A stretch of 64,000 nucleotides of DNA from Pseudomonas phage PhiPA3. Where the stretch lies: the sequence record HQ630627.1; one strand, given 5' to 3'. How positions within the stretch are numbered: the stretch's first letter is position 1; each line of letters starts with the position of its first letter. The position numbers and the translations under genes are program-made. The notes beneath the pieces are model-generated. The model made no database searches and was not told where the DNA came from. It saw only the letters and a program-made list of their open reading frames with translations. Shown here piece by piece: positions 12,526 through 58,420 of the stretch.

Positions 12526-12556
12526 TCCCAGTAACACACTCTTTTGAGGATTTAAA

Positions 12557-32129: not shown

Positions 32130-34283
32130 GTGATGGGCACGCAATTCCAACCGAATCCTTTTATTCGTCCGGTCGACGAGTATTGTCGTGATCTGGAGAT
32201 CATCGATGCGTATCTAAACGACCAAGCATTGTATCTGTCTGCCATGACAGGGGATCCGGTAGAACAATGCCTTGAGTTTGTAAAGGCTCAATCTCGTCCT
32301 GAGGGAGCAATGGCACTTCAGAATCCGAAGGCCTTGATCCTAGATAAGAATCCCGCAGGTGACCGTGAACTGAAAGAAACTACGTTCATGGGTTTCCTGA
32401 ATCGAGTGAAGAAGCAAGAACTCTTGTTATCGCCGAGCATGACTGTGTACATGCCGGAATCGCAACGTCAGTCTACACACTCGCAATACATTGCCGAAGG
32501 CGTGGCTAACCGCAAACGCGTAAAGAAAGAACAAATGCGTTTGGAAGGTGAAGGTACCACTGAAGCACTCGAATTAGCCCAGGTTCGTAAAGGCGAACAA
32601 GAGAACTTCAAAATTAACAATAACTCTTACAGTGGGGCAACTGTAAGTGCGGCAACTATTCTGTACTACAAGTCGACTCACTCGTCTCTGACGTCCACTT
32701 GCCGTACCGCAACCTCGTATGCGAACGCCAACAACGAGAAGTTCATCATGGGGAACCGGCACTACTACACGCCGGAGATCACCAAAGCCAACCTGCTGTC
32801 GATTGCCAACATCACCGACCTTAAGAAGCTGCAAGAGTGCATGGATCACTTCCAGATGCATTATCCGACCGCTGACGAAGTCGTTGAGATGGTACTGCGT
32901 TCGACTGCACACTACTGGCAGAACCAAGATTACACTGCCCAGATCCACACCATGGTTAGTGGCTTCACTCCACTGCAACGAGCTGCTGTTGTTTATGTCG
33001 GTGATCTGTACCACACCTACAAACACAACAAAGATCTGATCCGAAACTTCCTGATGGAACTGTCTCAAATCGGACGGCCTGATCAAGTTATTTCCAAGGA
33101 AGAATACAATACTTACGATGGCGACATGGATCTGCTGGCTAACTTCATTTGCTATGATCTGGTTAAAGGTCGTAACAAAGAGAAACTGGCAGCCGAGAAC
33201 CCGGAAGTGTTTGACACCATCTACGCTACTGGTAAGAATATTTCGGAAGTCTTGCACAAGTACAAGTTGATCATTGAAGCATTGCTTTTGACCAATAACG
33301 TTCCATCTAGTATTCATGCCTTCCCGACTATTTATCGTCGCGCAGCAGTGATTTCTGACACTGACTCAACCATGTTCACCATGCAGTATTGGGTGGAAGA
33401 GTTCTTTGGTCGTGTCTGCTTTACTTCGGAAGCTAAACGTCTGGTGTTCGCACTGGTGTTCTTGGTATCTGAAGTAGTGATGCACATCCTGGCGATTCAA
33501 TCGGCCAATATGGGTGTATCCAAAGAGAAGCTTCGTCTGCTGGCGATGAAGAACGAATACTACTTTGCTGTACTGTCATTGACCACACGTTCCAAACACT
33601 ATTACGCATCCCAGGATGCGCAGGAGGGCGTAATGTTCGCTAAAGCGCGAATGGAAGTGAAGGGTGTCGGTCTTCGTGACTCTAAGGTACCCCCGAAGAT
33701 CAACAAGGCTGCGAAGAAGATGATGGAGAACATCATCAAATCGGTTAAGGAAGAGATCCCATTGGATCTCCCAGCAATGTTGAAAGAAGTGGCTGATTTC
33801 GAACGTGACATCATCAACTCGATCTTCTCGGGTAAATCTGAATACCTGACCACCGGTAAGTGTAAGAAGCTTAACGCGTATAAGTCAGAAGACAACGCTA
33901 CGTACGCTAAACACCGATTCTGGGCTGAGGTATTTGGTCCGTCTTATGGTGGCACTGAAGAACCACCTTACTCGTTCGTTAAGGTATCGGTTACCGTCGA
34001 TAACCGTACTCGCTTCAACGAATGGGTAGAGTCCATCGAAGATAAAGGTCTGGCGATGCGCCTGAAGAAATGGGCTATGGAAAACGATAAGTCCGGCATC
34101 ACCACGTTCCACGTACCAATGACCGTTGTAGAGAACCATGGTATCCCGAGTGAGATTACTCGTGTGGCGGATGTACGTACTGTAATCTCCAACACCATGG
34201 GTGTGTTCTACCTGATACTCGAATCGCTGGGGATCTTCCTCATCGACAAAGATAACTCCCGTCTGATCTCTGACTTTTATTAA
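32130..34283 (+). CDS. large hypothetical protein, possible polymerase/nucleotidyltransferase-like
   Basis: 717 aa; contains KINNNSYSG (resembles family-B polymerase motif B Kx3NSxYG, offset by one) and AAVISDTDSTMF (DTDS, motif C-like); no motif A found, so the assignment is weak. Confidence 0.55.
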   Translation: MMGTQFQPNPFIRPVDEYCRDLEIIDAYLNDQALYLSAMTGDPVEQCLEFVKAQSRPEGAMALQNPKALILDKNPAGDRELKETTFMGFLNRVKKQELLLSPSMTVYMPESQRQSTHSQYIAEGVANRKRVKKEQMRLEGEGTTEALELAQVRKGEQENFKINNNSYSGATVSAATILYYKSTHSSLTSTCRTATSYANANNEKFIMGNRHYYTPEITKANLLSIANITDLKKLQECMDHFQMHYPTADEVVEMVLRSTAHYWQNQDYTAQIHTMVSGFTPLQRAAVVYVGDLYHTYKHNKDLIRNFLMELSQIGRPDQVISKEEYNTYDGDMDLLANFICYDLVKGRNKEKLAAENPEVFDTIYATGKNISEVLHKYKLIIEALLLTNNVPSSIHAFPTIYRRAAVISDTDSTMFTMQYWVEEFFGRVCFTSEAKRLVFALVFLVSEVVMHILAIQSANMGVSKEKLRLLAMKNEYYFAVLSLTTRSKHYYASQDAQEGVMFAKARMEVKGVGLRDSKVPPKINKAAKKMMENIIKSVKEEIPLDLPAMLKEVADFERDIINSIFSGKSEYLTTGKCKKLNAYKSEDNATYAKHRFWAEVFGPSYGGTEEPPYSFVKVSVTVDNRTRFNEWVESIEDKGLAMRLKKWAMENDKSGITTFHVPMTVVENHGIPSEITRVADVRTVISNTMGVFYLILESLGIFLIDKDNSRLISDFY

Positions 34284-36335: not shown

Positions 36336-36385
36336 CGACATAAACCCCTCTCCTTCGGGAGAGGGGCGTTATGCATTTATTTTTT
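36334..36385 (+). repeat. 52-nt exact dispersed repeat spanning a terminator
   Basis: AACGACATAAACCCCTCTCCTTCGGGAGAGGGGCGTTATGCATTTATTTTTT is identical at 61381-61432. Confidence 0.8.
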
Positions 36386-36386
36386 C
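36345..36386. terminator. terminator at a convergent junction (copy 1 of a 52-nt repeat)
   Basis: CCCCTCTCC-TTCG-GGAGAGGGG, then CGTTATGCATTTATTTTTTC. Confidence 0.7.
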
Positions 36387-37477
36387 AGATCAGCGATTGT
36401 CTCAGCAATCTGTTTGTTGAATTGTTTCACGAATTCAGAACTACCCATGTTGCGGTAGACTTGGTCGTTAGAGCTATCGATCAGATCAATCATAACTTCA
36501 TTCAACTGCGAACGATCATAGCCATGGTTCTGTTGCATCATGCGAATCAGGTAACGAATGTAGGGTAAGCGGGCCATGGTAATAGCCCATTCGTTCTGAT
36601 ACGTCACTGGTTCACGTGGTAGCTTGATGACATCAAACAGATCGTTCTTAACGATCATCGGGGTAATAGCAGCCAACCCTTCGAGTTCAATCCCTTTCAG
36701 AATAGCTTCTTTGTTAATGTATTCAGCAAGCGTATCCAGACGGGGAGACATGTCGGTTAAGTAGAAGGGATGCGATACCGGGAACTTCGGGTTATCGATA
36801 TGCTGGGAAGCGCGATCCAGTCTATTAAAGAAGGCGATATCCAGATAACTCTCGATCATGTTGGGTAGTACAATACTCCCTACAAACCTGTAAGCGTTCT
36901 CTTTTTGATCTACGCCGTTTTGTATTTGCCATCTGAGCCAATAACGATACTGCACCAACAGCATGGGAATATTAACTGAGATCACGCCGTAGGCTCGCCC
37001 TTGGGTGGTGTTGTTCATGATCGGGAGGTTAACGTCTGTCCGTGTGTGGTACAGATACTTAACTGGCTGGAGATCCCGCCATGTTTTCCCCAGTCCTTTG
37101 GTCTCGAATCGTTCTAGGCTCGCCATTGCGACTTCTTCAGACTTGGGTCCTAGGGTGATTCCCCCTTCGTGGATTTTCCCTTTGTGAATGGAAGATGTCA
37201 TACCAAAGACACGGTACACGCCCTTAGCGTAATCTTCAACTTTCTTTGCCCAAGCGGCGTCATCAATCTTCCAATCGATCACAAACTGCTGACACAGTAA
37301 AGCAAACATATTGGAAGAGTCCACGTATTTCGGAGCTTTCCGATAATACGTTTGCACATCTTTAATAAGAGTTTTGTAGGTCCGACGAATATAGACAATT
37401 CGAGGATCCAAAGCTTGGCCTAAGCGACGCGTGGGTGCGTCTCTGAAGAGCATGTACATGTTAGTCGCCCATTGCAA
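36377..37477 (-). CDS. hypothetical protein
   Basis: 366-aa minus-strand ORF between bidirectional terminator 36345 and the divergent promoter region. Confidence 0.55.
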   Translation of the reverse strand: MQWATNMYMLFRDAPTRRLGQALDPRIVYIRRTYKTLIKDVQTYYRKAPKYVDSSNMFALLCQQFVIDWKIDDAAWAKKVEDYAKGVYRVFGMTSSIHKGKIHEGGITLGPKSEEVAMASLERFETKGLGKTWRDLQPVKYLYHTRTDVNLPIMNNTTQGRAYGVISVNIPMLLVQYRYWLRWQIQNGVDQKENAYRFVGSIVLPNMIESYLDIAFFNRLDRASQHIDNPKFPVSHPFYLTDMSPRLDTLAEYINKEAILKGIELEGLAAITPMIVKNDLFDVIKLPREPVTYQNEWAITMARLPYIRYLIRMMQQNHGYDRSQLNEVMIDLIDSSNDQVYRNMGSSEFVKQFNKQIAETIADLKK

Positions 37478-37540: not shown

Positions 37541-39274
37541 ATGCATTCCAATTATACCCCCACCCGTAAAAGCGTTACAGGTATTACCATCGGTAATATG
37601 CAAAACATCGCCTTACTCCATATGCCGAACATGTATAACCAGGTTTCTGAGCTGTTCCTTTATAGTACCTATTTCCATGGGATGGACCTCACCCGCTGTA
37701 ACCGCGATGCAGTCGAGTGGTTCATGACTCACCTCGCTGATGCTGTCCAACACGATTTCGATAATCTTGATGGCGAACAACTGGACGATCGAATCAAGGC
37801 ACGCATCGCCGGTTTGCAGGACGTAATCCAGCAAGCCTTAACTGGTGAAGGCGTGCTGTGTGAACAGCCAGGCGCCATCAAAGTGGAAGTTAATGGTATT
37901 CATCGCTTTATCCAGATGAACCATGATTTCAACCGGGTGAAGATGGCTGTACAAAAACTGATTACAGGTGCCATTGGCGTAATCCGCCCAGGCGTCACCA
38001 CCCATCAAGTCCGTGATCTCGAAAAGGTCCTTAGCAAAGAGTGGACTGTAATGACCAACAGTGCCCGTAAGGAGGCTTTGGTTAATTACATTGCTTTGCT
38101 GGCGAATTGCCATAACAACTCGCAGACTAACCAACTTCTACCGGAAGCTAAAGTCCCCCAACGTATTTTCCTCAACCCCCGTAACAGGAGTACTATCATG
38201 CAACACGATGATGAAAACATTCGTTCTGGTACTAGCGATAGCTTCGAAGATACCAACAACGAAAGAACAGGCCTTCCCCGTCTTAACGAGCGTCTACGGA
38301 GCAATCGAGCCACCAAAGTCGATATCACGGATGCTCCGGATCTGACTGATGCTCGTTACAGCGACAACGGTGATATTCATCTGAAGAAGATCTTCCTGAA
38401 CATCTCCGCTACCGCTATTGCTAAGGCAGGCCTACTCATCGAGAATTTCACTGACGACAACTTCGATCGCATCGTTAATCACGCTGCCTCCTTGTTTGGT
38501 CCTTGTTTGGATACCAACAGCGAAGAACTCATTAACAATCAGCTGTCTATCCTGGCCACCTTCGTCAGAGACGTTTACGATGAGCAGACTAAAAGCACTG
38601 GAGAACCCCGTGAGCTGTCTCTGATCGAGCGCAAATTCAGTGGGAACATTCCGCTGGATATCGACAAAGGTTACCTGTCCATCCAACGTAATGACACTGA
38701 AAGCTCCGATCAAATCGGTTTCGTCTACAATGACGAAAACCGTGAGTTCACGAAGGCATCTTCGGAAGAAGAACAGCGCATGCGTGACGAGATCGTAGCT
38801 ATTTGTTCTGGTCCGAGTATCGACGCTTTGCACCACAAAGCTGCTCTGGATTACCAGCGTGCTATTCAAGAAGCCAATGACGTCCGTGCGGAGGGTTCTA
38901 ATACCTCGCATATGAAGTACAAGCAGTTGATGCAGAAAGCTCGTGCACATTACCTGCAAACGGTTGAGATGATCGACAAAGGCGTCATGGTGGAGAACGA
39001 TGGTCTACTGGCCACCAACGTCATTAATGCCCGTACTCGCCTGGCAGCTTATCGCTGCAATGGTAATGAACTGGTTAAACTGCATCGTGAGGTGGTGGAA
39101 CGTCGAGATGCGCTTCAAGCGGCTGAAGAATGCCGACTGACCCAGGAACGTGGAGAGCTGATCCGCGACATCATGGAAAAGGTCATCAGCCGAATCATGG
39201 ATGCACAGCGCCAGGGCGAACTCACCGAAATTGTTCGCAACCTGATCGATGAGTTGAACGTCCACGCGAAATAA
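37541..39274 (+). CDS. hypothetical protein (charged, predicted helical/coiled-coil C-terminal half)
   Basis: 577-aa ORF 44 nt after the TCTATATCATGG motif. Confidence 0.55.
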   Translation: MHSNYTPTRKSVTGITIGNMQNIALLHMPNMYNQVSELFLYSTYFHGMDLTRCNRDAVEWFMTHLADAVQHDFDNLDGEQLDDRIKARIAGLQDVIQQALTGEGVLCEQPGAIKVEVNGIHRFIQMNHDFNRVKMAVQKLITGAIGVIRPGVTTHQVRDLEKVLSKEWTVMTNSARKEALVNYIALLANCHNNSQTNQLLPEAKVPQRIFLNPRNRSTIMQHDDENIRSGTSDSFEDTNNERTGLPRLNERLRSNRATKVDITDAPDLTDARYSDNGDIHLKKIFLNISATAIAKAGLLIENFTDDNFDRIVNHAASLFGPCLDTNSEELINNQLSILATFVRDVYDEQTKSTGEPRELSLIERKFSGNIPLDIDKGYLSIQRNDTESSDQIGFVYNDENREFTKASSEEEQRMRDEIVAICSGPSIDALHHKAALDYQRAIQEANDVRAEGSNTSHMKYKQLMQKARAHYLQTVEMIDKGVMVENDGLLATNVINARTRLAAYRCNGNELVKLHREVVERRDALQAAEECRLTQERGELIRDIMEKVISRIMDAQRQGELTEIVRNLIDELNVHAK

Positions 39275-39485
39275 GAAAAGATACTGGGGTTTATCATTTA
39301 ATACAGGAGTTGGCCGTAAGGTACGATCCTGCACTAAAAGCTATGCCCCAGTGTCCACTGTTTGCAAATCGTTTTCAACTTAAGGAAGCGATTATGTAAT
39401 ACAGTATGTGGAAGTTCTGCTACCACAATGACCTAGCTTTTATAGCGGGTTTCGTGGTTTATAGCCCATTGAAAAAAATCTCACA

Positions 39486-39496
39486 TCTATATCACA
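39486..39496 (+). promoter_or_regulatory. promoter-like motif TCTATATCACA (class B)
   Basis: 76 nt upstream of the candidate chimallin gene. Confidence 0.45.
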
Positions 39497-39570
39497 GGTG
39501 TGCACTCGTTCCCGAAAGGTTCTGAGTCTACTTGATCAAGTATTGAAATACCATCGTAAAGGAAAAAGAC

Positions 39571-41454
39571 ATGTCTATTCGTGATAGCGAAAACAACAAC
39601 GGCCAACAGCAGCAGACCGCGCAAACTGCCGCCCCCGCCCCGCAAATGCAACAGACCCAACAAGGACCCAAAGTGCAAACTCAAACTCTCCAAGGCGGTG
39701 CTGGTAACCTGAACAGCATCTTCCAGCGTTCCGGCCGTACCGACGGTGGTGACGCTCGTGCCAGCGAAGCGCTGGCTGTGTTCAACAAACTGAAAGAAGA
39801 GGCAATCGCTCAGCAAGATCTGCATGACGATTTCCTGGTCTTCCGTTTCGACCGCGATCAGAACCGCGTAGGTTACTCCGCTCTGCTGGTTGTTAAGCGT
39901 GCCGCTATCAACGGTCAACAAGTCATCGTTACCCGCCCGCTGGTAATGCCGAACGATCAGATCACTCTGCCGACCAAGAAACTGACCATCCAAAACGGGA
40001 TGCATCAGGAAACCATCGAAGCGGAAGCTGACGTACAAGACGTGTTCACCACCCAGTACTGGAACCGCATCTGCGACTCCATTCGTCAGCAAACTGGCAA
40101 GCACGACGCCATGGTCATCAACGCTGGTCCGACCGTCATCCCCGCAGATTTCGATCTGAAAGATGAACTGGTTCTGAAGCAGCTGCTGATCAAATCCGTC
40201 AACCTGTGCGATGACATGCTGGCCAAGCGTTCCGGCGAACAGCCCTTCTCCGTTGCCATGCTCAAAGGCACCGACGAGACCCTGGCTGCCCGTCTGAACT
40301 TCACTGGTAAGCCGATGCATGACAGTCTGGGCTATCCGATCCGTTCGGACATCCTGGTATCCCTGAACCGCGTCAAGAAGCCGGGCCAGCAGGAGAACGA
40401 ATTCTACGAAGCCGAAGATAAGCTGAACCAAGTCAGCTGCTTCGTCAACCTGGAATACACTCCTCAGCCGCAACAAGCCATCTACGGTGCTCCGCAGCAA
40501 ACCCAACAGCTGCCTCCGCTCACTCCGGCCATCGTCATCACCGACGTACGTCAGGCTGAGTGGCTGAAAGCAAACACCATGGAACTGTACCTGTTCGCTC
40601 TGAGCAACGCATTCCGTGTAACTGCTAACCAGTCCTGGGCACGTAGCCTGCTGCCGCAACTGGGTAAGGTCAAGGACATGCGCGATATCGGTGCAATCGG
40701 CTACCTGAGCCGTCTTGCAGCGCGCGTTGAAACCAAGACCGAAACCTTCACCGACCAGAACTTCGCCGAACTTCTGTACAACATGGTTCGTCCGTCTCCG
40801 GTGTTCATGTCCGACCTGAACCGCTTCGGCGACAACGCTGCGATCGAGAACGTCTTCATCGACGCCCTCGGTGGTGTAAACCAGCAGCGCGCTGTAGCGG
40901 CTATCATTGCCGGTGTGAACAACCTGATTGGTGGTGGCTTCGAGAAGTTCTTCGATCACAACACCATGCCGATCATCCAGCCGTACGGCACCGACATCCA
41001 GCTGGGCTACTACCTGGATGGCGAGGGTGAGAAGCAAGACCGTCGTGACCTGGACGTCCTGGGCGCTCTGAACGCCAGCGACGGCAACATCCAGGAATGG
41101 ATGAGCTGGTACGGCACTCAGTGCAACGTCGCAGTACATCCGGAACTGCGTGCTCGCCAGTCGAAGAACTTCGACCGTCAGTACCTGGGTAACTCCGTCA
41201 CCTACACCACCCGTGCACATCGTGGTATCTGGAACCCGAAATTCATCGAGGCTCTGGACAAAGCGATCGCGTCGGTTGGCCTGACCGTAGCCATGGACAA
41301 CGTGGCTCAGGTGTTCGGTGCTCAGCGCTTCAGCGGCAACCTGGCTATCGCCGACTACGCCGTTACTGGTACCGCTCAGGTATCCAGCGGCCTGGTTTCC
41401 AACGGTGGCTACAACCCGCAGTTCGGTGTAGGTCAAGGCTCGGGCTTCTATTAA
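39571..41454 (+). CDS. chmA: candidate chimallin (phage nucleus shell protein, phiKZ gp54-like)
   Basis: 627 aa, matching chimallin size; Q-rich disordered N-terminus; extreme high-expression codon bias; immediately upstream of the nvRNAP beta' N-terminal fragment gene, as gp54-gp55 are arranged in phiKZ; a 296-nt leader carries the promoter motif. Assignment rests on synteny and size, not recognised sequence. Confidence 0.45.
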   Translation: MSIRDSENNNGQQQQTAQTAAPAPQMQQTQQGPKVQTQTLQGGAGNLNSIFQRSGRTDGGDARASEALAVFNKLKEEAIAQQDLHDDFLVFRFDRDQNRVGYSALLVVKRAAINGQQVIVTRPLVMPNDQITLPTKKLTIQNGMHQETIEAEADVQDVFTTQYWNRICDSIRQQTGKHDAMVINAGPTVIPADFDLKDELVLKQLLIKSVNLCDDMLAKRSGEQPFSVAMLKGTDETLAARLNFTGKPMHDSLGYPIRSDILVSLNRVKKPGQQENEFYEAEDKLNQVSCFVNLEYTPQPQQAIYGAPQQTQQLPPLTPAIVITDVRQAEWLKANTMELYLFALSNAFRVTANQSWARSLLPQLGKVKDMRDIGAIGYLSRLAARVETKTETFTDQNFAELLYNMVRPSPVFMSDLNRFGDNAAIENVFIDALGGVNQQRAVAAIIAGVNNLIGGGFEKFFDHNTMPIIQPYGTDIQLGYYLDGEGEKQDRRDLDVLGALNASDGNIQEWMSWYGTQCNVAVHPELRARQSKNFDRQYLGNSVTYTTRAHRGIWNPKFIEALDKAIASVGLTVAMDNVAQVFGAQRFSGNLAIADYAVTGTAQVSSGLVSNGGYNPQFGVGQGSGFY

Positions 41455-41906
41455 TAGAAGCCTAACCAAATAACTCCCTCGGTAGATAGGGGTGTACGAA
41501 GGCGTACATCCCGATTCTAATGCGTATACTTAGGCCAACTCGAAAGAGATCGCCTAGAGATAGGTAGGTTCCGTGGTAGCCCCAGCTTTATCGGAAACTG
41601 ATTTATTGCAGACCTTGGTCATTGCCAGAGCGCTTATCTACGTTGTGGGGTAGGTTGATAAGACGACAATGACTCGGAGTGAGGCCCACTCTCCTTAACA
41701 GTGCAATTGGATCAAGTCTGGTCAGGCAGCGCTATCACTACACGAGTTGTGAGTTAGAACCACTTAACCCAAAAGGCGTCACTCTAGGGAGACGTTGTGG
41801 TTCACATGGGGCATGGAATCACCTAGCAGGCTTGATGGTAAAACATTAAGGTAACCAGCCGTGGAGGATACCCAACCCAAAATAGGGGTAACCCCCTGGG
41901 ATAAAG

Positions 41907-41946
41907 GCGGCTCCTTCGGGAGCCGCTTATATCTCCTTTTTTTGTC
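41907..41946 (+). terminator. intrinsic terminator upstream of the RNAP beta' N-terminal fragment gene
   Basis: GCGGCTCC-TTCG-GGAGCCGC, then TTATATCTCCTTTTTTT. Confidence 0.7.
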
Positions 41947-41969
41947 GTCGTAGTGGAGGGAATAACGAC

Positions 41970-43436
41970 ATGGGTCTGTATGCGGCAATCGTCAATCACG
42001 ACGAGATGCTTGCCAATGCAACTGGCAAGATCGTATTCGCAAATGACTTCAATACCAGTAACGCAGAACAGAAGGAGGAATTCACGCGACATCTGTATTC
42101 GCATTATCAGGATGCAGACGCCATTGAGAACTCGGCCTCGTGTGAATGTGAACACATCACAGATGCACACAAGCTCGGCGTAATCTGTGAAGTTTGTGGT
42201 ACACCTGTTGTTAGTACATCTAATCGTCCCATTGTTCCATCGATGTGGGTACGTGCACCGGAAGGGGTGGTGAGTCTGGTTAGTCCGGAACTCTGGATCA
42301 TGCTCAGTGGGTATATGACCATGAAGGAGTTCGACTTCCTGGAATATCTCACAAACACGGGCTATAGTTACGACTACGACACCATCAGCTCCAAAGAAAC
42401 CAAAAAGAAACTTGACAAGCTGTTACAACGTGGGTTTACTCGCGGCTTGAACCATTTCATCGAGAACTTTGATGAGATTTTTCAGTTCTTGCTTGATGCA
42501 AACATTATTAACAATAACAAAGGCGAGATGTATGCCTTTGTACAACAGAACAAACATAAGCTGTTCCCGAAGAATCTTCCAATCCCCTCCAAACTGTGTT
42601 TTGTGGTAGAATCAACCACATCGGGTACGTACATCGATAAACCAATTGCTGCTGCAATTGATGCGGTGTTGACCATCAGTTCGATTGGTTCATCTCCGAT
42701 TGAACTTAAGTCGATCGTTGTCCAAAATCGGGTAGCGCGATTCCTCAAATTGAATGCTACCTTCCACGAGAACTATGACAAACAACGGATAGCTCAGAAA
42801 CAGGGCCTGATTCGTCGACACGTCTTGGGTGGCCGTCTTAACCTGACCGCTCGGGCAGTAATCACCTCGATCAGTTCTCCGCATGATTACGATGAACTGC
42901 ATATCCCGTGGGGTGTTGGCTGTCAGCTATTGAAGTATCACCTGGTCAACAAGCTGAAACGTAAGTTCCGTATGACCACCCGAGATGCGATGTCCTACAT
43001 CTATTCGAAGGTACTAGCGTACGATCCGATGCTCGATAGCCTCTTCAAGGAAATCATTGCAGAATCCAAGTACAAAGGCCTGGCTGCGGTATTCCACCGT
43101 AACCCGACTCTACAACGTGGTTCGACTCAGCAGTTCTTCATCACCAAAGTGAAGAGCGACATCAGGGATAATTCCATCAGCATGTCTGTGCTATGTCTGA
43201 AGGCACCTAACGCGGATTTTGACGGCGATCAACTGAACTTGACGCTGATGCCTGATAACTATCTGGCTGATGCAACTGACCGAATCGCTCCTTGGAGCTG
43301 GGTACTGAGTACGGATGATCCCCATGAAATTTCGGGGAACTTGGAATTACAAGGCCCGGTTGTCGAGACGATCATTAACTTTGCTCACGAGGACTATCTC
43401 CCGCCGCTCGAAGAGTGGTTGAAGATGGCTGCCTAA
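41970..43436 (+). CDS. multisubunit RNA polymerase beta' subunit, N-terminal fragment (non-virion RNAP, phiKZ gp55-like)
   Basis: Zn-finger CECEH-x11-CEVC near the N-terminus; universal catalytic motif NADFDGDQLNL at residues about 405-415; ends shortly after, as in phiKZ-type split beta'. Confidence 0.85.
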   Translation: MGLYAAIVNHDEMLANATGKIVFANDFNTSNAEQKEEFTRHLYSHYQDADAIENSASCECEHITDAHKLGVICEVCGTPVVSTSNRPIVPSMWVRAPEGVVSLVSPELWIMLSGYMTMKEFDFLEYLTNTGYSYDYDTISSKETKKKLDKLLQRGFTRGLNHFIENFDEIFQFLLDANIINNNKGEMYAFVQQNKHKLFPKNLPIPSKLCFVVESTTSGTYIDKPIAAAIDAVLTISSIGSSPIELKSIVVQNRVARFLKLNATFHENYDKQRIAQKQGLIRRHVLGGRLNLTARAVITSISSPHDYDELHIPWGVGCQLLKYHLVNKLKRKFRMTTRDAMSYIYSKVLAYDPMLDSLFKEIIAESKYKGLAAVFHRNPTLQRGSTQQFFITKVKSDIRDNSISMSVLCLKAPNADFDGDQLNLTLMPDNYLADATDRIAPWSWVLSTDDPHEISGNLELQGPVVETIINFAHEDYLPPLEEWLKMAA

Positions 43437-43456
43437 ATCAACAGGAGACAATCGTA

Positions 43457-44068
43457 ATGAATTCGGCCTACGGCGTGGATTTGATGGACATCGCCGCTGG
43501 TGGACACCTGGATCAGCAAACAACCAACTGGCTAGGCTCGCGCATTGAAACCATGCGCAATACATTGTCTAGCGCGGCAATGGGGTTCTTTGACCAAGCG
43601 CGCAACATGTACCAGATGATCAGCGCCAACGATGCGGTTCAGGCTCTACGGAATCTGAATGCAAAAGTGGATAACGTCTGGAATGCCAACAACGTACACT
43701 ACTGCAACAGTCTGGAGCAGATTCAAACTGCGAACCCGATCATGCAGCGGTGGATTATGGCCATGCCCACAGTTCGTTCAATGTATCTGAACAACTCGCT
43801 GGAAGGATACGCTGATTCGTATGTGAATCACCACGGTGACGCCATTGGCGCAGCTCATTATGACTATCGTCGTGTAATGGACGGCATTGTTGAGGTCGCT
43901 GATGACCACTTCAAGGTTACTCATTATTACGAAGAGACGCCTGCTGAGGAGCGCCCGTTCACTCTCCACGAACAAGTGGATATCATTCGGACTTGGAACC
44001 TGGTTCAACAGGAACTGGATAAGAATGAGATGGATCCGACCAGTCCGGTCGGAAACATGATGGGTTAA
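43457..44068 (+). CDS. hypothetical protein
   Basis: ATG 43457 with RBS CAGGAGACAATCGTAATG; the ORF track's 43415 start overlaps the beta' gene. Confidence 0.5.
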   Translation: MNSAYGVDLMDIAAGGHLDQQTTNWLGSRIETMRNTLSSAAMGFFDQARNMYQMISANDAVQALRNLNAKVDNVWNANNVHYCNSLEQIQTANPIMQRWIMAMPTVRSMYLNNSLEGYADSYVNHHGDAIGAAHYDYRRVMDGIVEVADDHFKVTHYYEETPAEERPFTLHEQVDIIRTWNLVQQELDKNEMDPTSPVGNMMG

Positions 44069-48602: not shown

Positions 48603-48645
48603 CAGCATCTCTTGGGACAAAAACCCGGAGATGCTGTATGCCCTC
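48603..48645 (+). terminator. long-loop hairpin followed by TATGCC
   Basis: CAGCATCTC-(19-nt loop)-GAGATGCTG then TATGCCCTC, after ssb. Confidence 0.4.
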
Positions 48646-48677
48646 TCGGTCTCCAGCCAATAGAAAAAATCTTAGAT

Positions 48678-48687
48678 CTATATTACA
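48678..48687 (+). promoter_or_regulatory. promoter-like motif CTATATTACA (class A)
   Basis: TTAGATCTATATTACAGCTGTG, 35 nt upstream of ATG 48722. Confidence 0.5.
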
Positions 48688-48721
48688 GCTGTGTACCACC
48701 GGCAGTAACAAGGAGATAACA

Positions 48722-50299
48722 ATGCAGATCACCGTCACGGGTGTACAAGGCTCTGGATTCGTTGAGTGTACCATTAGCCATAAAGGCCAGTCCATCACAT
48801 GGAGCACCCGTGCTTATAGCAAGGTGAAACTTCAAGATCCAACACGAGTATTCAAGGAGATTAACGACTACCTGGAATATGCTGGAGAAGATGTACAGGA
48901 CAAGATTTGGAACGAATACAAACGTATTCGCGATCTGTTCAACATGGACTTTGATCCAAGCCACATCACTGCAACGCTGATTCATTATATCCAACAAATC
49001 TACAGCGTGTTGCCGATGAACAACATGCGTCGTTGGTTGTTGACCGTAGGTAACCTACACATCCCAGCAGATATTCAGAAAACCATCACAGAAGACTCCC
49101 GTTACAACAAACGCGAACAAACTTATCTACAGCACGACTACATCAACCTGGCAACGGTAGCATTGGCTCTGCGCGTCATGATTCCGATCTGGGGCGAGTA
49201 CATGGATCAAGGTACTGACCAAGATCTGTATCGTGAAAACGATGTCGTTGGTTTGATCTCTCGTTGTGAAGTGGCCAACTGGCCGGCGATGGAAACAGAT
49301 ACCGTGGGAGAGCCCGTAGATACAGCGTTCGACAAGCTGGAAGGGTACGTGCGCTTCTGCGTTGAAGATGAACCCACCACGTTGGGTCGTCTATGGTCTG
49401 GTATGTCGTCGGTAGAAATCCCAGTGCATCTACAGTCCAAGGTATTGGTTCGTCGTCTGACTATCGTTCCACTGAATGATCCGAGTTCCCACTCGATCGT
49501 TGCGAACGTATTCCGTTACGTACGTTCCAACCTGAACCCCACTGAACGCAGTACGGCTGATCGTGTAAACGAAAAGCGTCCTGAAGGAGGTAGCGGTGAT
49601 GAGGATGATAAAACTTCATTCATTGAAGCTCACAAGACTAAGGGTCGAGTGAGTCCAGGTGATATCGAAGCATTTAACATAGATGCAATGGACTATGAGC
49701 TTCTGGCTGAAACCGTAGACCCCACCATTAACAAAGCCATGCTCAAGGCATGCATCAACTGCATTGATTACATTGCTAACAAGGAAATTCGCCCACACCA
49801 AGTGCTCTTAGCACAATGGGTAATGGCTAAAGCATTTCCAGCACGGGCGTTCTATCACATCGATAAGATGCCGGTGAACCATCTGCTGGCAACCACCCAA
49901 GCACTACTGTGGCATTGGGGTTTCCTCGATGTAGCGATCTTCATGCAGGTTGAGCCACTGTATCATGGCGATCATCAATCATCCAACCAACTTAGCCAAA
50001 CCCGCAGCGGTGCCCGCATTGCTAACCGGTATAAGCCGATGTTGGATGAGCTGTATCCACACATGAAACTTGCGAAGGTCCCCCAAAGCGGTGAAATACC
50101 CAAACCAGACAACATGGCCGGTATTGCGATCAATAGCGCAAATGCTTCCATCCGTTCGTCTAACTGGGTTTTCCGCGGCCCGCCTGAGCTCTTCAATGCC
50201 GCCAATCAGGTAGCGCAGAATGATGTTCTAATGGTTCCACCTAACATCAAGCATGCCCTCACTGAGATGGTAATGCATTTGGCCAAGATCAACCAGTAA
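48722..50299 (+). CDS. hypothetical protein
   Basis: Start at ATG 48722 with RBS AAGGAGATAACAATG, 35 nt after the CTATATTACA motif; the ORF track's 48638 start lies in a terminator. Confidence 0.55.
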   Translation: MQITVTGVQGSGFVECTISHKGQSITWSTRAYSKVKLQDPTRVFKEINDYLEYAGEDVQDKIWNEYKRIRDLFNMDFDPSHITATLIHYIQQIYSVLPMNNMRRWLLTVGNLHIPADIQKTITEDSRYNKREQTYLQHDYINLATVALALRVMIPIWGEYMDQGTDQDLYRENDVVGLISRCEVANWPAMETDTVGEPVDTAFDKLEGYVRFCVEDEPTTLGRLWSGMSSVEIPVHLQSKVLVRRLTIVPLNDPSSHSIVANVFRYVRSNLNPTERSTADRVNEKRPEGGSGDEDDKTSFIEAHKTKGRVSPGDIEAFNIDAMDYELLAETVDPTINKAMLKACINCIDYIANKEIRPHQVLLAQWVMAKAFPARAFYHIDKMPVNHLLATTQALLWHWGFLDVAIFMQVEPLYHGDHQSSNQLSQTRSGARIANRYKPMLDELYPHMKLAKVPQSGEIPKPDNMAGIAINSANASIRSSNWVFRGPPELFNAANQVAQNDVLMVPPNIKHALTEMVMHLAKINQ

Positions 50300-53810: not shown

Positions 53811-55001
53811 ATGTACGAAGAACACAACCTCCGGCGTGCAGTACGAGAGATCCATGCAAAACTTCTCGGTCATGCTGCACTGGATCCGTATTATGGAACT
53901 ACCTCCGCTGCTCGTGGAGCTATGTTCTTGTCTCACATTGGTCAGGCGCCCGTTGTGGAAGGGAACGAGCCCCGCCGTGTGATGACCGGTATGGAAATGC
54001 GTTATGCCGAATACACGTTCGACGTTCGTCTACCTACGGACTGCACGATTCTGCACAAAGTCCGTAAGTACCCCACTGGGCAAGGGTATGGGGCAATCCA
54101 ACATAACCCTGTAACAACTCTGATCTACGAGAACTATTACGACGAATACAAGACCATCGGCGTACTGCATGTTCCTGAGTACATGAGTTTTCACCAGGAC
54201 TTTGGTTATGAGCTAGTCAAGAACAAAGAAGTATGGGAATCTCTGCAACCTGACCAGATGTTCGCCAAAGATACCGTTATCGCTCAGTCCTCGACTGTAA
54301 AGTCTAACGGATTGTACGGCATGGGTGTAAACGCCAACGTTGCGTTCATGTCTGTGCCTGGTACCATTGAGGACGGTTTTGTCGTCTCCGATGAGTTCTT
54401 GGAACGTATGTCCCCACGTACTTACACCACCGCAGTTTGTGGTGCGGGTAAGAAGGCATTCTTCCTGAACATGTATGGCGATGACAAGATCTACAAACCG
54501 TTCCCGGATATTGGAGAAAAGATTCGGGAAGATGGCGTGATCTTTGCGGTACGCGATTTGGATGATGACTTGGCTCCGGCCGAAATGACTCCGCGCGCCC
54601 TGCGTACGCTGGACCGTACTTTCGATCGCGCTGTTATTGGTGATCCGGGTGCGACTGTAAAAGACATCAAAGTATATTGGGACGAACGTCAGAATCCCAG
54701 TTTCACGCCAAGCGGTATGGATGGTCAACTGCGCAAGTATTACGACGCGTTGTGCACCTATTACCGGGAGATCATCAAGATCTACCGTGGGTTGCTGGCA
54801 CGGCGTAAAGACAAGCTGCGGATCAGCGAAGAGTTCAACCAGCTCCTCGTTGAAGCCATGATCTACCTACCGCAAGCTGAGGGCCAGCGTAAGCTGACTC
54901 GGATGTATCGTCTGGAACAACTGGATGAATGGCGTGTGGAACTCACCTACGAATCCATTAAAGTTCCTGGTGGTGCATATAAGCTCACAGATTTTCACGG
55001 T
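53811..55001 (+). CDS. RNA polymerase beta subunit C-terminal fragment, exon 1 (non-virion RNAP, phiKZ gp71/73-like)
   Basis: Block GVNANVAFMSVPGTIEDGFVVSDEFLERMSPRTYTT aligns with E. coli beta [34 protein letters not shown]; the ORF runs to TGA 55011, but the proposed splice donor follows T55001 (...KLTDFHG). Confidence 0.8.
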
Positions 55002-55445
55002 GGTTCGCTATGAATGTCAATAAACATTGATTAAAGTATACTTATTTGTCCGTGGTATGTTGAACAAGTTGCCGTAGGATAAATAAGTGAAGATTTTAAT
55101 GGATGGATATTCAAAGAAATGTAAGAGCCTGCTTAATCAGCGATGGTTAAGTAATCGTCATCTAATTGCGGGAAACCCCTGAGAGCCTTATCTACTAACT
55201 CAACCCAGCGATGGAGTTGAGGGCCAGTCTAATCCACTGGGTACAGTAAAAATGATAAGGATTGGGCAATCCGCAGCGAAGCTTCTCTTTGAGAAGAACG
55301 TTCAACGACTAACCCCTAACCAGGGTGTAGAACTTAAGCGAGTTCGAAATGGTGACCCTCTCACGCAGAGGAAGATATAGTCTGTTCCCATGTGAAAGCA
55401 TGGGCGGGTGTCATAGCACACCGGGATAGCGTAGCGAACTATCTG
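55002..55445 (+). ncRNA. group I self-splicing intron (ORF-less) interrupting the RNAP beta gene
   Basis: P4 motif AATTGCGGGAAA (55164-55175); P7 halves GACTAA (55307-55312) and ATATAGTC (55375-55382) as in the Tetrahymena intron; GAAA-tetraloop P9 hairpin (55387-55404) followed by two more hairpins (55407-55424, 55425-55443); candidate IGS GCCGT (55071-55075) complementary to the exon end ACGGT with G.U at the splice site; no ORF over 60 aa inside; exact boundaries inferred. Confidence 0.6.
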
Positions 55446-56447
55446 GACAAAAAGAAAGGAGTAGTCTGTGAGGTGAGACCGAAAGCTGATATGCCAGTGG
55501 ACGAATTTGGTAACGTCGTAGACGCTATCATCTTCGGTGGTTCCACCATGCGTCGTTCTAACTATGGTCGGATCTACGAACACGGTTTCGGAGCAGCATC
55601 CCGAGACCTGGCGCAACGTCTACGTGTTGAAGCTGGCCTTCCCCGTCATGGCGTAGTACCGGAGCAAGATCTGAATCGGGTTTGCAGCAATCGAGAGTGG
55701 GTTACTTACGCTTTCGCTGAACTGCAAGAGTTCTATTACATCATCGCGCCAACCATGCACGAGATATTGAGAGAACACCCAAGTCCAGCTGAGTACGTAA
55801 AAACCGTTCTTCGTGATGGTTTCTCGTACATCTACAGCCCGGTAGACGATCCGGTAGACCTGATGAGTTCACTGAACTGCATCATGAACAGTCGTTTCTG
55901 CCCGAACCATACGCGAGTTACCTATCGCGGTCAAGATGGGAAGATGGTCACCACCAAGGACAAAGTTCTGGTTGGTCCGCTGTACATGATGTTGCTGGAG
56001 AAGATCGGTGAAGACTGGTCTGCCGTAGCGTCGGTAAAAGTTCAGCAATTCGGCCTGCCGTCTAAACTGAACAACTCTGACCGTTCCAGCACTCCGGGTC
56101 GGGAATCCGCCATCCGTTCGTTCGGTGAATCGGAAACTCGTTCGTATAACTGCACTGTTGGCCCAGAAGCTACGGTGGAGCTGTTGGACCAGACTAACAA
56201 CCCGAGAGCGCACCTTGCTGTGATCAACTCTATTCTGACTGCTGACAAGCCCAGTAACATTGAGCGTGCAGTGGACAGGACCAAGGTACCGTTCGGTAGT
56301 AGTCGACCGGTGGATCTGCTGGAGCACCTGCTGGAATGTCGCGGTCTTAAGTTTGAATACGCAACCACTGACGGCGTACAGCCTGTTCACACAGCTGTAC
56401 CAATCCGTGCCCAACAAAAGGTTAAGAGTGAGGCAATCGAGGAGTGA
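55446..56447 (+). CDS. RNA polymerase beta subunit C-terminal fragment, exon 2
   Basis: DKKKGVVCEVRPKADMPVDEFGNVVDAIIFGG aligns with E. coli beta [33 protein letters not shown]; later VGPLYMMLLEKIG...FGESETRSY aligns with VGYMYMLKLNHL...FGEMEVWALEAYG; the proposed junction ...KLTDFHG|DKKKGVV restores the near-universal beta block [11 protein letters not shown]. Confidence 0.75.
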   Translation, partial: DKKKGVVCEVRPKADMPVDEFGNVVDAIIFGGSTMRRSNYGRIYEHGFGAASRDLAQRLRVEAGLPRHGVVPEQDLNRVCSNREWVTYAFAELQEFYYIIAPTMHEILREHPSPAEYVKTVLRDGFSYIYSPVDDPVDLMSSLNCIMNSRFCPNHTRVTYRGQDGKMVTTKDKVLVGPLYMMLLEKIGEDWSAVASVKVQQFGLPSKLNNSDRSSTPGRESAIRSFGESETRSYNCTVGPEATVELLDQTNNPRAHLAVINSILTADKPSNIERAVDRTKVPFGSSRPVDLLEHLLECRGLKFEYATTDGVQPVHTAVPIRAQQKVKSEAIEE

Positions 56448-56449
56448 AG

Positions 56450-58420
56450 ATGAACCAGTACAATGCTCGTGATCTCCTCAACATGTCGTATGATGACTTG
56501 TTCGCCATTCCGAATGAGTGGCACAAGATCATCTTCGACGATGGAGAGATTCTCACCAAAGATCGCGCCACTAAACTGTCGATTCTGCTTTGGCATCCGC
56601 TGAAGCAGTTTCCGAATGCTACGCTGTCCGTGAAGTACCACCTGGGAGACACTCGGGTTACCTCGAAGTCCCTAGTGAAACTCCTGAACAGCGTGATCTG
56701 GGGAATTCATGCGTGGAGTAATGAGCAGGTCGATCCGGAGGTTCTGGCCCGTCTCGCAATCGAAGCGAAGAACGTTCTGTATAACGAAGCTACTTCCCGC
56801 CTTGGTGCCTACGTAGCAACGCTGTCCATGTTCGAAATCGCGGAGGTTTACAATCATCCAAAAGTCCGTGAGGCCAACCAAAACATTGAGCCTACCACCC
56901 ACGGCATCGAAACTATTGCTTACGGCAAAATAAAGGAAGCTTTCAACGACCCAACACAGTTCCGCGGTAACAGCATCATCGAGGGTCTGCGCTCCGGGAC
57001 GCAAAAGATGGAACAGTTGCTCCAAGCTTTCGGTCCTCGTGGATTCCCGACCGACATCAACTCCGATATCTTCGCTGAACCTTGTCTGACTGGGTACATT
57101 GATGGTATCTGGGGTCTGTATGAGAACATGATCGAATCGCGTTCTGGTACCAAGGCTCTGTTGTATAACAAAGAGTTGTTGCGGGTAACCGAGTACTTCA
57201 ACCGGAAGTCTCAGCTGATCGCACAATATGTGCAGCGTCTCCATAAGGGTGACTGTGGTGCAGGGTACATTGAGTTCCCGGTCATCAAAGCTTACCTGAA
57301 ATCGCTACGCGGTAAGTTCTACCTGAACGAGGAAACAGGCAAGCGAGAGATCCTGCAAGGAAACGAGACTCATCTGATCGGTAAGAAGATCAAGATGCGT
57401 TCCGTGCTGGGTTGCGTACATCCTGATCCGCAAGGTATTTGTGCAACGTGTTACGGTACGCTAGCCGATAACATTCCGAGAGGCACGAACATCGGCCAAG
57501 TGTCTGCTGTATCCATGGGTGACAAAATCACCTCATCGGTACTGTCGACTAAACACACCGATGCGACTTCCGCTGTAGAGCAATACAAAATCACTGGCGT
57601 TGAAGCTAAGTACCTAAGAGAAGGTCAGGCGCCTGAAACGTTGTACCTGAAGAAGGAGCTTGCTAATAAGGGCTATCGCTTGATGATCGGCCGCAACGAA
57701 GCGCAGAACTTGGCTGACGTGCTGATGATCGATAACTTGAGTGCATATCCACCCACATCTGCATCCGAACTGACTCGTATCGGTTTGGTTCGCACGGTGG
57801 ATGGGATTGATGAGGGGGATGTCCTGACGGTATCGTTGTATAACCGTAAGGCTAGCCTGTCAATCGAATTGCTGCAACATGTGAAGCGTGTTCGCTGGGA
57901 ACTGGACAACCGGGATAACATCGTCATCGACCTGAATGGTTTCGATTTCTCCCTGCCATTCCTGACCCTACCGTACAAGCACGTTAACATGTACGAAGTG
58001 ATGAAGCGGATTCAAAGCTTCTTGCACTCCGGTAGCGACACCGAAGGTTCTAAACTGAGTTCTGATAAGGTAGGATTTACTAGCAAGACTTATCTTAAGA
58101 ACTACAATGACCCCATCGATGCCGTTGCAGCATTTGCTTCTCTGGTCAACGAGAAGATTCAATTGCCAATGCCGCACTGTGAAGTACTGGTTTATGCTAT
58201 GATGGTTCGGTCCACGCAACAGCGTGACTACCGTCTGCCTAAACCGGGTATTTCGGGTCAGTTTGAGAAGTATAACAAGCTGATGCAATCCCGCTCGCTC
58301 GCCGGCGCAATGGCGTTTGAGAAGCAGCATGAGCCGTTGAATAACCCCGGCAGCTTCCTCTATACGCTGAGGAATGACCACCCGTACGACCTTGCGGTCA
58401 AGGGAGGTAAGCTGTACTAA
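56450..58420 (+). CDS. RNA polymerase beta' subunit C-terminal fragment (phiKZ gp74-like)
   Basis: GLRSGTQKMEQLLQAFGPRGF and GYIDGIWGLYENMIESRSGTKA align with the E. coli beta' region [20 protein letters not shown] ... [21 protein letters not shown] (bridge-helix region); start ATG 56450 directly follows the beta stop at 56447. Confidence 0.8.
   Translation: MNQYNARDLLNMSYDDLFAIPNEWHKIIFDDGEILTKDRATKLSILLWHPLKQFPNATLSVKYHLGDTRVTSKSLVKLLNSVIWGIHAWSNEQVDPEVLARLAIEAKNVLYNEATSRLGAYVATLSMFEIAEVYNHPKVREANQNIEPTTHGIETIAYGKIKEAFNDPTQFRGNSIIEGLRSGTQKMEQLLQAFGPRGFPTDINSDIFAEPCLTGYIDGIWGLYENMIESRSGTKALLYNKELLRVTEYFNRKSQLIAQYVQRLHKGDCGAGYIEFPVIKAYLKSLRGKFYLNEETGKREILQGNETHLIGKKIKMRSVLGCVHPDPQGICATCYGTLADNIPRGTNIGQVSAVSMGDKITSSVLSTKHTDATSAVEQYKITGVEAKYLREGQAPETLYLKKELANKGYRLMIGRNEAQNLADVLMIDNLSAYPPTSASELTRIGLVRTVDGIDEGDVLTVSLYNRKASLSIELLQHVKRVRWELDNRDNIVIDLNGFDFSLPFLTLPYKHVNMYEVMKRIQSFLHSGSDTEGSKLSSDKVGFTSKTYLKNYNDPIDAVAAFASLVNEKIQLPMPHCEVLVYAMMVRSTQQRDYRLPKPGISGQFEKYNKLMQSRSLAGAMAFEKQHEPLNNPGSFLYTLRNDHPYDLAVKGGKLY

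Follow-up and report, generated by a model that had tools for sequence, protein, structure and literature searches.

The chimallin gene of Pseudomonas phage PhiPA3 and a candidate structured RNA in the spacer downstream of it

Genes of the chmA locus

The window analyzed here is a stretch of 64,000 nucleotides from the 309,208-bp genome of Pseudomonas phage PhiPA3 (HQ630627.1). The gene order conserved at the locus is DNA polymerase, a gp52-like gene, a variable slot, chmA (phuN, PhiPA3 gp53; positions 39571–41454, + strand) and the gene of the nvRNAP β′ N-terminal subunit (41970–43436, + strand). The full chmA ORF encodes 627 aa and was confirmed at the coordinates given for a chimallin candidate by the first-pass annotation, which had seen the sequence only. 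It occupies the conserved position of phiKZ gp54, and the phiKZ gp54–gp55 synteny invoked there holds when gene orders are compared. The candidate had also been described as lying directly upstream of the gp55-like gene. The two genes are indeed adjacent, but 515 bp of ORF-free DNA separate them.

The variable slot upstream of chmA is filled in PhiPA3 by an ORFan of 577 aa, in contrast to the 121-aa gp53 upstream of the shell gene in phiKZ. The 577-aa protein has no match in Pfam, PHROG or tblastn searches, and a large protein database returned only the protein itself. On the opposite strand, a 660-aa ORF (39487–41469, − strand) overlaps chmA completely. It matches no family, PHROG included, and is rejected as a gene; this ORF is a "shadow" that exists because the GC3 of chmA is high.

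The codon bias of chmA is the strongest among the 40 ORFs of the window. Its GC3 is 0.692 and its Nc 33.1, compared with 0.534 ± 0.042 and 49.9 ± 5.9 in the other 39 ORFs, and the gene that had been called highly codon-biased is thus extreme for the window. A virion structural protein (Nc 35.2; virion protein at 10429–13432) and the tail sheath (Nc 36.2) come next.

The PhuZ tubulin gene (22325–23272, + strand) lies 17 kb upstream of chmA. Its product is an exact match to PHUZ_BPPA3 and is also recovered by PDB 3r4v/3j5v (E~1e-89) and PHROG 4733; the GGGSGS signature (aa 91–96) and the acidic C-terminal tail (IDIDDNRTDDGFVV), both recorded earlier, are present. In nucleus-forming phages of this group, the phage-nucleus compartment is positioned by PhuZ filaments and houses the active split nvRNAP.

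The β′ N-terminal subunit (488 aa, phiKZ gp55 homologue) matches 7ogp_A over aa 1–485 (E = 2e-240) and the Pfam family RNA_pol_Rpb1_2, and is identical to PhiPA3 YP_009217137.1. The gene is intron-free, whereas phiKZ gp55 carries a group I intron with an HNH gene. The catalytic motif NADFDGD, previously noticed in this fragment, is read at aa 414–420 (43209–43229, + strand). The other nvRNAP ORFs, all on the + strand, are the phiKZ gp68 homologue (48638–50299; PDB 7ogp_B, E = 4.5e-208), the first part of β (53811–55013; phiKZ gp71/73 residues 6–393; 7ogp_C, E = 2.8e-189; PHROG 18919/3295), the second part of β (55392–56447; phiKZ gp71/73 residues 393–698; PDB 7ogp_C, E = 1.7e-143) and the β′ C-terminal subunit (56444–58420; phiKZ gp74 homologue; PDB 7ogp_D, E = 0). 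The first β ORF extends a few codons into a group I intron, the core of which (55111–55404, + strand; RF00028, 79.2 bits, gathering score 50) is the only Rfam match at gathering score in the whole window. The search, which covered gp55, gp68, gp71/73 and gp74, matched four of the five phiKZ nvRNAP subunits. The split-RNAP signature reported earlier is therefore present, but it is spread over five ORFs and not four genes, gp71/73 being split by the intron. The phiKZ nvRNAP subunits are PHIKZ71/73/74/55/123 (Wicke 2020), with gp68 added from 7ogp.

Identity and start of the chimallin

Residues 26–627 of the ORF are 100% identical to MBP-PhuN of PhiPA3 (PDB 8FNE/8FV5; phmmer against PDB sequences, E = 0), that is, to the deposited 602-aa sequence of gp53 and to the cryo-EM construct. 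Exact-sequence look-up of the product returned "nuclear shell protein [Pseudomonas phage PhiPA3]" (YP_009217136.1, UniProt F8SJT5, CHMA_BPPA3). The Pfam family PF25677, "Chimallin_Phikzvirus", covers aa 10–622 of 627 with 951.5 bits (cut-off 27), and PHROG 4795, "nuclear shell protein", matches with E = 3.9e-226. Homologues were found by tblastn in 112 phage records, at one place per record, and many of them are annotated as "nuclear shell protein". At the nucleotide level, megablast of positions 39000–44000 against the phage collection found RVTF4 only (75% identity over 13% of the query). The window is assigned to PhiPA3 by the exact matches of its ChmA, PhuZ and RNAP subunit proteins to entries of that phage.

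Among the other PDB sequences, the 634-residue chimallin of 7sqq (phmmer, E = 6.5e-201) and 8igg (E~1e-200) match the ORF strongly. A more distant chimallin, 7sqt, matches aa 54–621 (phmmer, E = 1.6e-21). The chain of 7SQT/7SQU/7SQV, which we take to be the chimallin of the E. coli phage Goslar, belongs to the same family, the N- and C-terminal tails lying outside the matched region. The 634-residue "Chimallin" chain of 7SQQ/7SQR/7SQS matches gp105 of 201phi2-1 (Laughlin et al. 2022, PMC9365700). This protein is 52–53% identical to that of PhiPA3 over the full length and shares its N-tail/NTS/core/CTS layout, MIRD start and C-terminal Tyr, although the phage belongs to another genus and infects another host (P. 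chlororaphis). Identity to phiKZ gp54 is 47–48%.

On this evidence the ORF at 39571–41454 is almost certainly the PhiPA3 chimallin (ChmA/PhuN, gp53), a full-length member of the family, as the first-pass annotation had proposed. The comparison with known chimallins that it recommended is decisively positive (8fne/8fv5, 7sqq, 7sqt). The protein could instead be part of the virion, a capsid protein or another structural one, considering that it is large and shows a high codon bias, as do the tail sheath and the virion protein at 10429–13432. These are generic features, however, and the probability of such an assignment is practically negligible in view of the identity to PhuN and of the Pfam and PHROG searches, which gave chimallin or nuclear shell protein only, with no match to a capsid, virion or other family. 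It is likewise extremely improbable that the ORF encodes a chimallin-family paralogue with another role and that the gene of the principal shell protein lies in another part of the genome. A second chimallin gene is conceivable, as 64 kb of the genome are in view, but nothing supports it positively, and it is at odds with the conserved gp54 position, with the single tblastn place per phage record and with experiments on this exact sequence: PhiPA3 gp53 forms lattices in vitro and is incorporated into PhiPA3 shells in vivo (PMC9938867).

Published work already covers the protein as well as its structure and function, and the protein itself offers nothing new. Chimallin is synthesized early in infection in very large amounts and self-assembles: its tetramers form a quasi-square lattice of a single layer, which is held together by flexible N- and C-terminal tails inserted into neighboring protomers; the lattice surrounds the replicating phage DNA together with the replication and transcription machinery and keeps out host nucleases and CRISPR-Cas (PMC9938867, PMC9365700). 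The structure of the PhiPA3 PhuN lattice was published in 2023 (Nieweglowska et al., PMC9938867).

The start of the protein probably differs from the deposited one. The chmA ORF begins 25 codons before the latter, and 39571 is the first possible start because an in-frame stop lies at 39544. A Shine-Dalgarno-like AAAGGA (39558–39563, + strand) precedes the ATG at 39571 by 7 nt; inspection of the sequence revealed no Shine-Dalgarno before the ATG at 39646, with which the deposited and structurally studied form begins (39646–41454, + strand; 602 aa, 66.6 kDa, from Met26 of the ORF). The M(S)IRD start of the longer form aligns with the annotated N-termini (MIRD...) of PS119XW, 201phi2-1 and Phabio, and a Logan assembly likewise contains a gene call of 627 aa with this earlier start.

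By composition and alignment, aa 1–45 (39571–39705, + strand) form a Q/T/A/P-rich tail that opens with the conserved M(S)IRD. The Q-rich N-terminus noted earlier is real, with 13 Q among the first 50 residues compared with 8.9% Q overall. In the alignment of chimallins the protein also has a conserved N-terminal segment, RSG..GGDARA.EAL (R53-S-G..G59-x-D-A-R..A67-L), and the C-terminus ends in an invariant Tyr (Y627) after a variable G/S/Q-rich tail.

Translation of chmA probably begins at 39571 and would give a protein of 627 aa and 69.3 kDa, with 25 additional disordered N-terminal residues relative to the deposited sequence. Given the good Shine-Dalgarno and the conserved M(S)IRD at 39571, the 602-aa structural form is probably short at its N-terminus. 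The published mass of PhuN agrees with the 66.6 kDa computed for the 602-aa form; this form was used in the published experiments and still incorporates into shells, and its residues 1–18 have no density in the cryo-EM map (PMC9938867).

The spacer between chmA and the RNA polymerase gene

The 515 bp between the two genes (41455–41969, + strand) are rich in hairpins and contain conserved blocks. They hold no credible ORF, every frame being full of stops, and form a candidate structured 3′UTR RNA. In 201phi2-1 a gene of 188 aa, gp106, stands between the chimallin and RNAP genes, and the 3′UTR has 225 nt compared with the 515 of PhiPA3. An origin of the spacer by decay of gp106 or of Phabio gp083 is rejected, tblastn being empty and stops occurring in all frames. 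In phiKZ the gene order is the same through RNAP β′-N, and a spacer of ~400–500 bp includes homologous blocks and the terminator. The conserved blocks are common to PhiPA3, phiKZ and PS119XW.

The terminator (41906–41943, + strand) consists of the hairpin GGCGGCUCC-UUCG-GGAGCCGC, TTAT (41927–41930) and a T-run (41937–41943). It is unique in the window and 97% identical in phiKZ-like genomes. This layout is present in 8 phages, and the terminator fits the hairpin+TTAT motif described for phiKZ in PMC10914365. A consensus terminator scan missed this + strand terminator, since the T-run begins 10 nt past the stem.

The fold z-score of the spacer is −3.1 in PhiPA3 and ranges from −2.7 to −3.5 in three phages. 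In the three-sequence alignment, 20 of the 109 predicted pairs carry compensatory changes, compared with 1–5 in slid controls, and 89% of cells are paired, compared with 36–45%; the structure was predicted from the very alignment on which these values were obtained, and only three independent sequence types exist, which do not suffice to test significance. The pattern of G-U pairs agrees with the + strand.

Positions 39200–42100 gave no Rfam match at E ≤ 1, and in the loci of phiKZ, PS119XW, 201phi2-1 and phiHQ nothing reached the gathering score except group I introns elsewhere. Pattern scans with two conserved spacer blocks recovered PA7 alone from the viral contigs (viral_contigs) and nothing from the genome contigs (genome_contigs). 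A single metagenome match of a spacer block, opposite a 334-aa ORF (L016, 12457–13461), is dismissed as chance, as the DNA around it is unrelated and offers no chimallin context. Host origin or a wider distribution of the element is not supported, because the scans found only PA7 and this chance match. No description of the element was found in the transcriptome papers examined.

Possible origin and role of the spacer element

The stretch 41455–41905 (~450 nt) could encode a structured RNA that is undescribed, kept by selection and specific to phiKZ-like P. aeruginosa phages (Phikzvirus, Pawinskivirus and PhiPA3), a reading proposed tentatively and with considerable doubt. We lean slightly toward a different origin of the conservation, namely recent exchange of DNA among phages co-infecting P. 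aeruginosa, or a patchwork of stabilizing hairpins and a terminator that does not amount to one functional RNA. The restriction of the element to phiKZ-like phages of P. aeruginosa is in line with such an origin, and so is its modular composition: phiHQ has the 3′ half only, two inserts are present in PhiPA3, and in RVTF4 there is just the terminator. The same is suggested by identities between PS119XW and phiKZ, which reach 84% in the spacer compared with 57–64% in the flanking genes, and by the spacer of PhiPA3, which is no better conserved than its flanks. The small number of independent sequence types and the circularity of the structural comparison point in this direction too. On the other hand, neither exchange nor a patchwork readily accommodates the excess of pairs changed on both sides and of paired cells over the slid controls, the low fold z-scores in three phages or the G-U pattern suited to the + strand. 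The constant position and orientation of the element, at one copy per genome, also argue for a single functional RNA.

If a structured RNA is indeed encoded here, it could be the 3′UTR of the early message that is expressed most abundantly, or it could be processed from the chmA message. The chmA message would have a structured 3′UTR of ~450 nt ending at the terminator, which probably passes only part of transcription into the RNAP gene. Stability, localization or translation of the chmA mRNA could be affected by such an RNA; alternatively, it may set the level of read-through into the RNA polymerase gene.

Synteny, size and codon bias sufficed to recover the chimallin gene, and otherwise its identification matters little. 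If 39571 is the true start, the residue numbering of published PhuN, in the structure as in the deletion mutants, would be offset by 25, and the 25-residue extension would lengthen the disordered tail that faces the cytosol. A structured RNA on the chimallin message, should it exist, would provide a new handle on the very early and very high synthesis of the shell protein, and could also explain the lower expression of the neighboring polymerase gene.

Identity of the nuclear shell gene and its start codon

The 627-aa ORF at 39571–41454 (plus strand, chmA) was proposed in the first-pass annotation as the chimallin gene of this phage on the basis of synteny, size and codon bias, and both the ORF and its assignment stand. 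According to a PDB sequence search, residues 26–627 of the product (ChmA, PhuN or chimallin) are 100% identical to "MBP-PhuN, phiPA3" (8fne, 8fv5). The search also reaches E~1e-200 with the 634-residue chimallin of 7sqq/8igg and E=1.6e-21 with 7sqt, a more remote chimallin, so that the comparison with known chimallins suggested earlier is unambiguously positive. By tblastn, the chmA product is 53% identical to 201phi2-1 gp105, the protein that the 7sqq chain matches. The Pfam family PF25677 (Chimallin_Phikzvirus) is recognized at 951.5 bits (cut-off 27), and the protein also matches PHROG 4795, "nuclear shell protein". All testable defining features of chimallin are found in it. Exact-sequence look-up returns the form starting at Met26 as YP_009217136.1 (UniProt F8SJT5, "Chimallin, Pseudomonas phage PhiPA3"), and the window's PhuZ and RNAP proteins also match PhiPA3 entries exactly. 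These exact matches identify the window as PhiPA3 and, by sequence, the gene as gp53, the published chimallin and not just a member of its family; the protein is already known.

Megablast against a phage DNA collection that lacks the PhiPA3 record gives RVTF4 as the sole match, at 75%. Homologues of the product are detected by tblastn in 112 phage records, many labelled "nuclear shell protein", from phages of Pseudomonas, Erwinia, Ralstonia, Burkholderia, Xanthomonas and other hosts. In the chimallin alignment, the N-terminal segment is conserved and a C-terminal tyrosine is invariant.

Both the database CDS and the construct used for cryo-EM begin at Met26 of the ORF (39646; 602 aa, 66.6 kDa). 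The first possible start is 39571, since an in-frame stop lies at 39544. The intervening extension (39571–39645, plus strand) carries a Shine-Dalgarno sequence and a conserved M(S)IRD: the ATG at 39571 is preceded by AAAGGA with a spacing of 7 nt, and SIRD (residues 2–5) aligns with MIRD, the annotated N-terminus of chimallin in PS119XW, 201phi2-1 and Phabio. In front of the ATG at 39646 stands GCCCCGCAA instead. GC3 of codons 1–25 (0.64) resembles that of the remainder of the gene, and a separate 627-aa gene call is found in a Logan assembly. Taken together, these features indicate that native PhiPA3 chimallin is probably the 627-aa form (69.3 kDa) and not the 602-aa one. The functional effect of the 25 added residues is probably small, because they extend a tail that already lacks density in the cryo-EM map of the 602-aa form (PMC9938867), and the N-tail is dispensable for incorporation in 201phi2-1 (PMC9365700).

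The Q-rich N-terminus and the strong codon bias noted in the first-pass annotation were both confirmed. Thirteen of the first 50 residues are glutamines. GC3 is 0.692 and the effective number of codons (Nc) 33.1, against means of 0.534 (sd 0.042) and 49.9 (sd 5.9) for the remaining 39 large ORFs of the window. Only two genes come near it, both less biased than chmA: the tail sheath, with Nc 36.2, and a virion structural protein, with Nc 35.2 (10429–13432, plus strand). This ranking fits codon bias tracking expression. The high GC3 of chmA also accounts for an antisense ORF of 660 aa spanning the whole gene (39487–41469, minus strand), which was rejected as a gene, being a shadow ORF with no match in the family search.

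Chimallin is the highest-expressed non-virion protein and self-assembles into a two-dimensional quasi-square lattice of tetramers, which surrounds replicating phage DNA and keeps out CRISPR-Cas and restriction enzymes; without the N-terminal 37 residues or the C-terminal tail, the protein fails to assemble and enter the shell or does so poorly (PMC9938867; PMC9365700). The role of the shell in vivo is documented for exactly the PhiPA3 sequence (PMC9938867). Identity and family membership were established here by sequence comparison, and the assembly mechanism is that described in PMC9938867 and PMC9365700.

Neighbouring genes and the split RNA polymerase

In phiKZ, the DNA polymerase gene gp50 is followed by gp52 (minus strand), gp53, the shell protein gene gp54 and the RNAP gene gp55. 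The corresponding order in the window is DNA polymerase (32130–34283), a gp52-like gene (36377–37477, minus strand), a 577-aa gene, chmA and the gp55 homologue. The proposed gp54-like placement holds. PS119XW and RVTF4 share this gene order, whereas 201phi2-1 and Phabio carry one small additional gene between the shell and RNAP genes. Immediately upstream of chmA lies an ORFan of 577 aa (37541–39274, plus strand), which is PhiPA3 "protein 052", given as 550 aa in the annotation. Searches of Pfam, PHROG and 50,697 phage records (tblastn) returned nothing, and among 5.8 billion proteins it matches only itself. The slot holds proteins of similar size in PS119XW (541 aa) and RVTF4 (568 aa), but the three share essentially no relationship, and phiKZ has the 121-aa gp53 there. 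The slot adjoining the shell gene is hypervariable.

PhuZ was correctly recognized at 22325–23272 (plus strand, 315 aa): GGGSGS lies at aa 91–96, the C-terminus is the acidic tail IDIDDNRTDDGFVV, and the protein matches the PhuZ structures of 201phi2-1 and phiKZ.

The gene downstream of chmA (41970–43436, plus strand, 488 aa) encodes, as predicted, the beta' N-terminal fragment of the non-virion RNA polymerase (nvRNAP); it matches PHIKZ055 of the solved phiKZ nvRNAP at E=2e-240 and contains NADFDGD at aa 414–420. Homologues of gp68 (48638–50299), gp71/73 (53811–56447) and gp74 (56444–58420) follow on the plus strand. The "four-gene" signature claimed earlier corresponds to four of the five nvRNAP subunits, carried on five ORFs. 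The gp71/73 homologue is divided into two ORFs, at 53811–55013 (phiKZ chain residues 6–393) and 55392–56447 (residues 393–698), separated by a group I intron with its core at 55111–55404 (plus strand; Rfam RF00028, 79.2 bits). No ORF of at least 150 aa was found inside this intron, which therefore seems to have no endonuclease gene. The beta' N-terminal gene, uninterrupted in PhiPA3, carries a group I intron in phiKZ (locus L001:10416–10737, accompanied by an HNH gene) and in PS119XW (locus L002:6379–6684). Intron presence therefore varies among genes and among phages.

The chmA–RNAP spacer

The chmA stop codon and the RNAP gene are separated by a 515-bp spacer (41455–41969, plus strand) in which no credible ORF was found. 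Its 3' end contains a putative terminator (41906–41943, plus strand) composed of the hairpin GGCGGCUCC-UUCG-GGAGCCGC, TTAT and a T-run, consistent with the hairpin+TTAT motif reported for phiKZ (PMC10914365). The hairpin is unique in the window and 97% identical in phiKZ-like genomes. In eight phages belonging to several genera the elements follow one another in the same way: hairpin, TTAT, T-run, about 20 nt, Shine-Dalgarno sequence and ATG (related-phage loci L001:8100–8177, L002:5071–5148, L003:4918–4995, L004:5331–5408, L006:2179–2256, L007:4952–5029, L009:5070–5147 and L012:4355–4432). With PhiPA3 included, nine phages have a CUCC-UUCG-GGAG hairpin, TTAT and T-run, with the next start codon about 25 nt downstream, and the stem shows compensatory changes across them. 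In PhiPA3 and phiKZ, the CUCC immediately 3' of the hairpin complements the GGAG of the RNAP gene's Shine-Dalgarno sequence; this pairing could mask the ribosome-binding site on read-through transcripts.

Alignment with the PS119XW and phiKZ counterparts reveals long conserved blocks and a nearly invariant 3' end. PS119XW and phiKZ share 84% identity in the spacer versus 57% and 64% in the flanking genes; the PhiPA3 spacer is more diverged (54–63%, on par with the flanks) and has two insertions. Folding of the spacer gives many hairpins, and in each of the three phages the ~450 nt 5' of the terminator fold better than shuffled sequences (z = -3.1, -3.5 and -2.7). Within three independent sequence types, and with the structure derived from the alignment used to test it, the alifold consensus comprises 109 pairs, 20 of them changed on both sides (1–5 with partners slid), and 89% of cells pair, against 36–45% with partners slid; none of 500 shuffles attains the observed values. 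G-U pairs indicate the plus strand.

The element is single-copy and confined to P. aeruginosa phiKZ-like phages. Only the terminator is present in RVTF4, and in relatives from other Pseudomonas hosts the 3'UTR is shorter and of a different, though also hairpin-rich, sequence. Nothing further emerged when viral, metagenomic and genome collections were scanned, Rfam gave no match, and no description of the element was found in the transcriptome papers examined on phiKZ and 201phi2-1. The spacer is a partly swappable mosaic, since in phiHQ (L013:229–764) its 5' half is replaced by ~330 nt of unrelated DNA and its 3' half matches PS119XW.

The spacer is a candidate structured 3'UTR RNA proposed from alignment and folding, and its standing as one functional RNA is tentative and rather doubtful. 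It is slightly more likely that the upstream hairpins are a patchwork of stabilising elements swapped among phages during co-infection than one functional RNA. PHIKZ054 belongs to a six-gene operon (Wicke et al.). In PhiPA3, the preferred reading is that the chmA message carries an extended, structured 3'UTR closed by a partial terminator, which would limit read-through into the polymerase gene.
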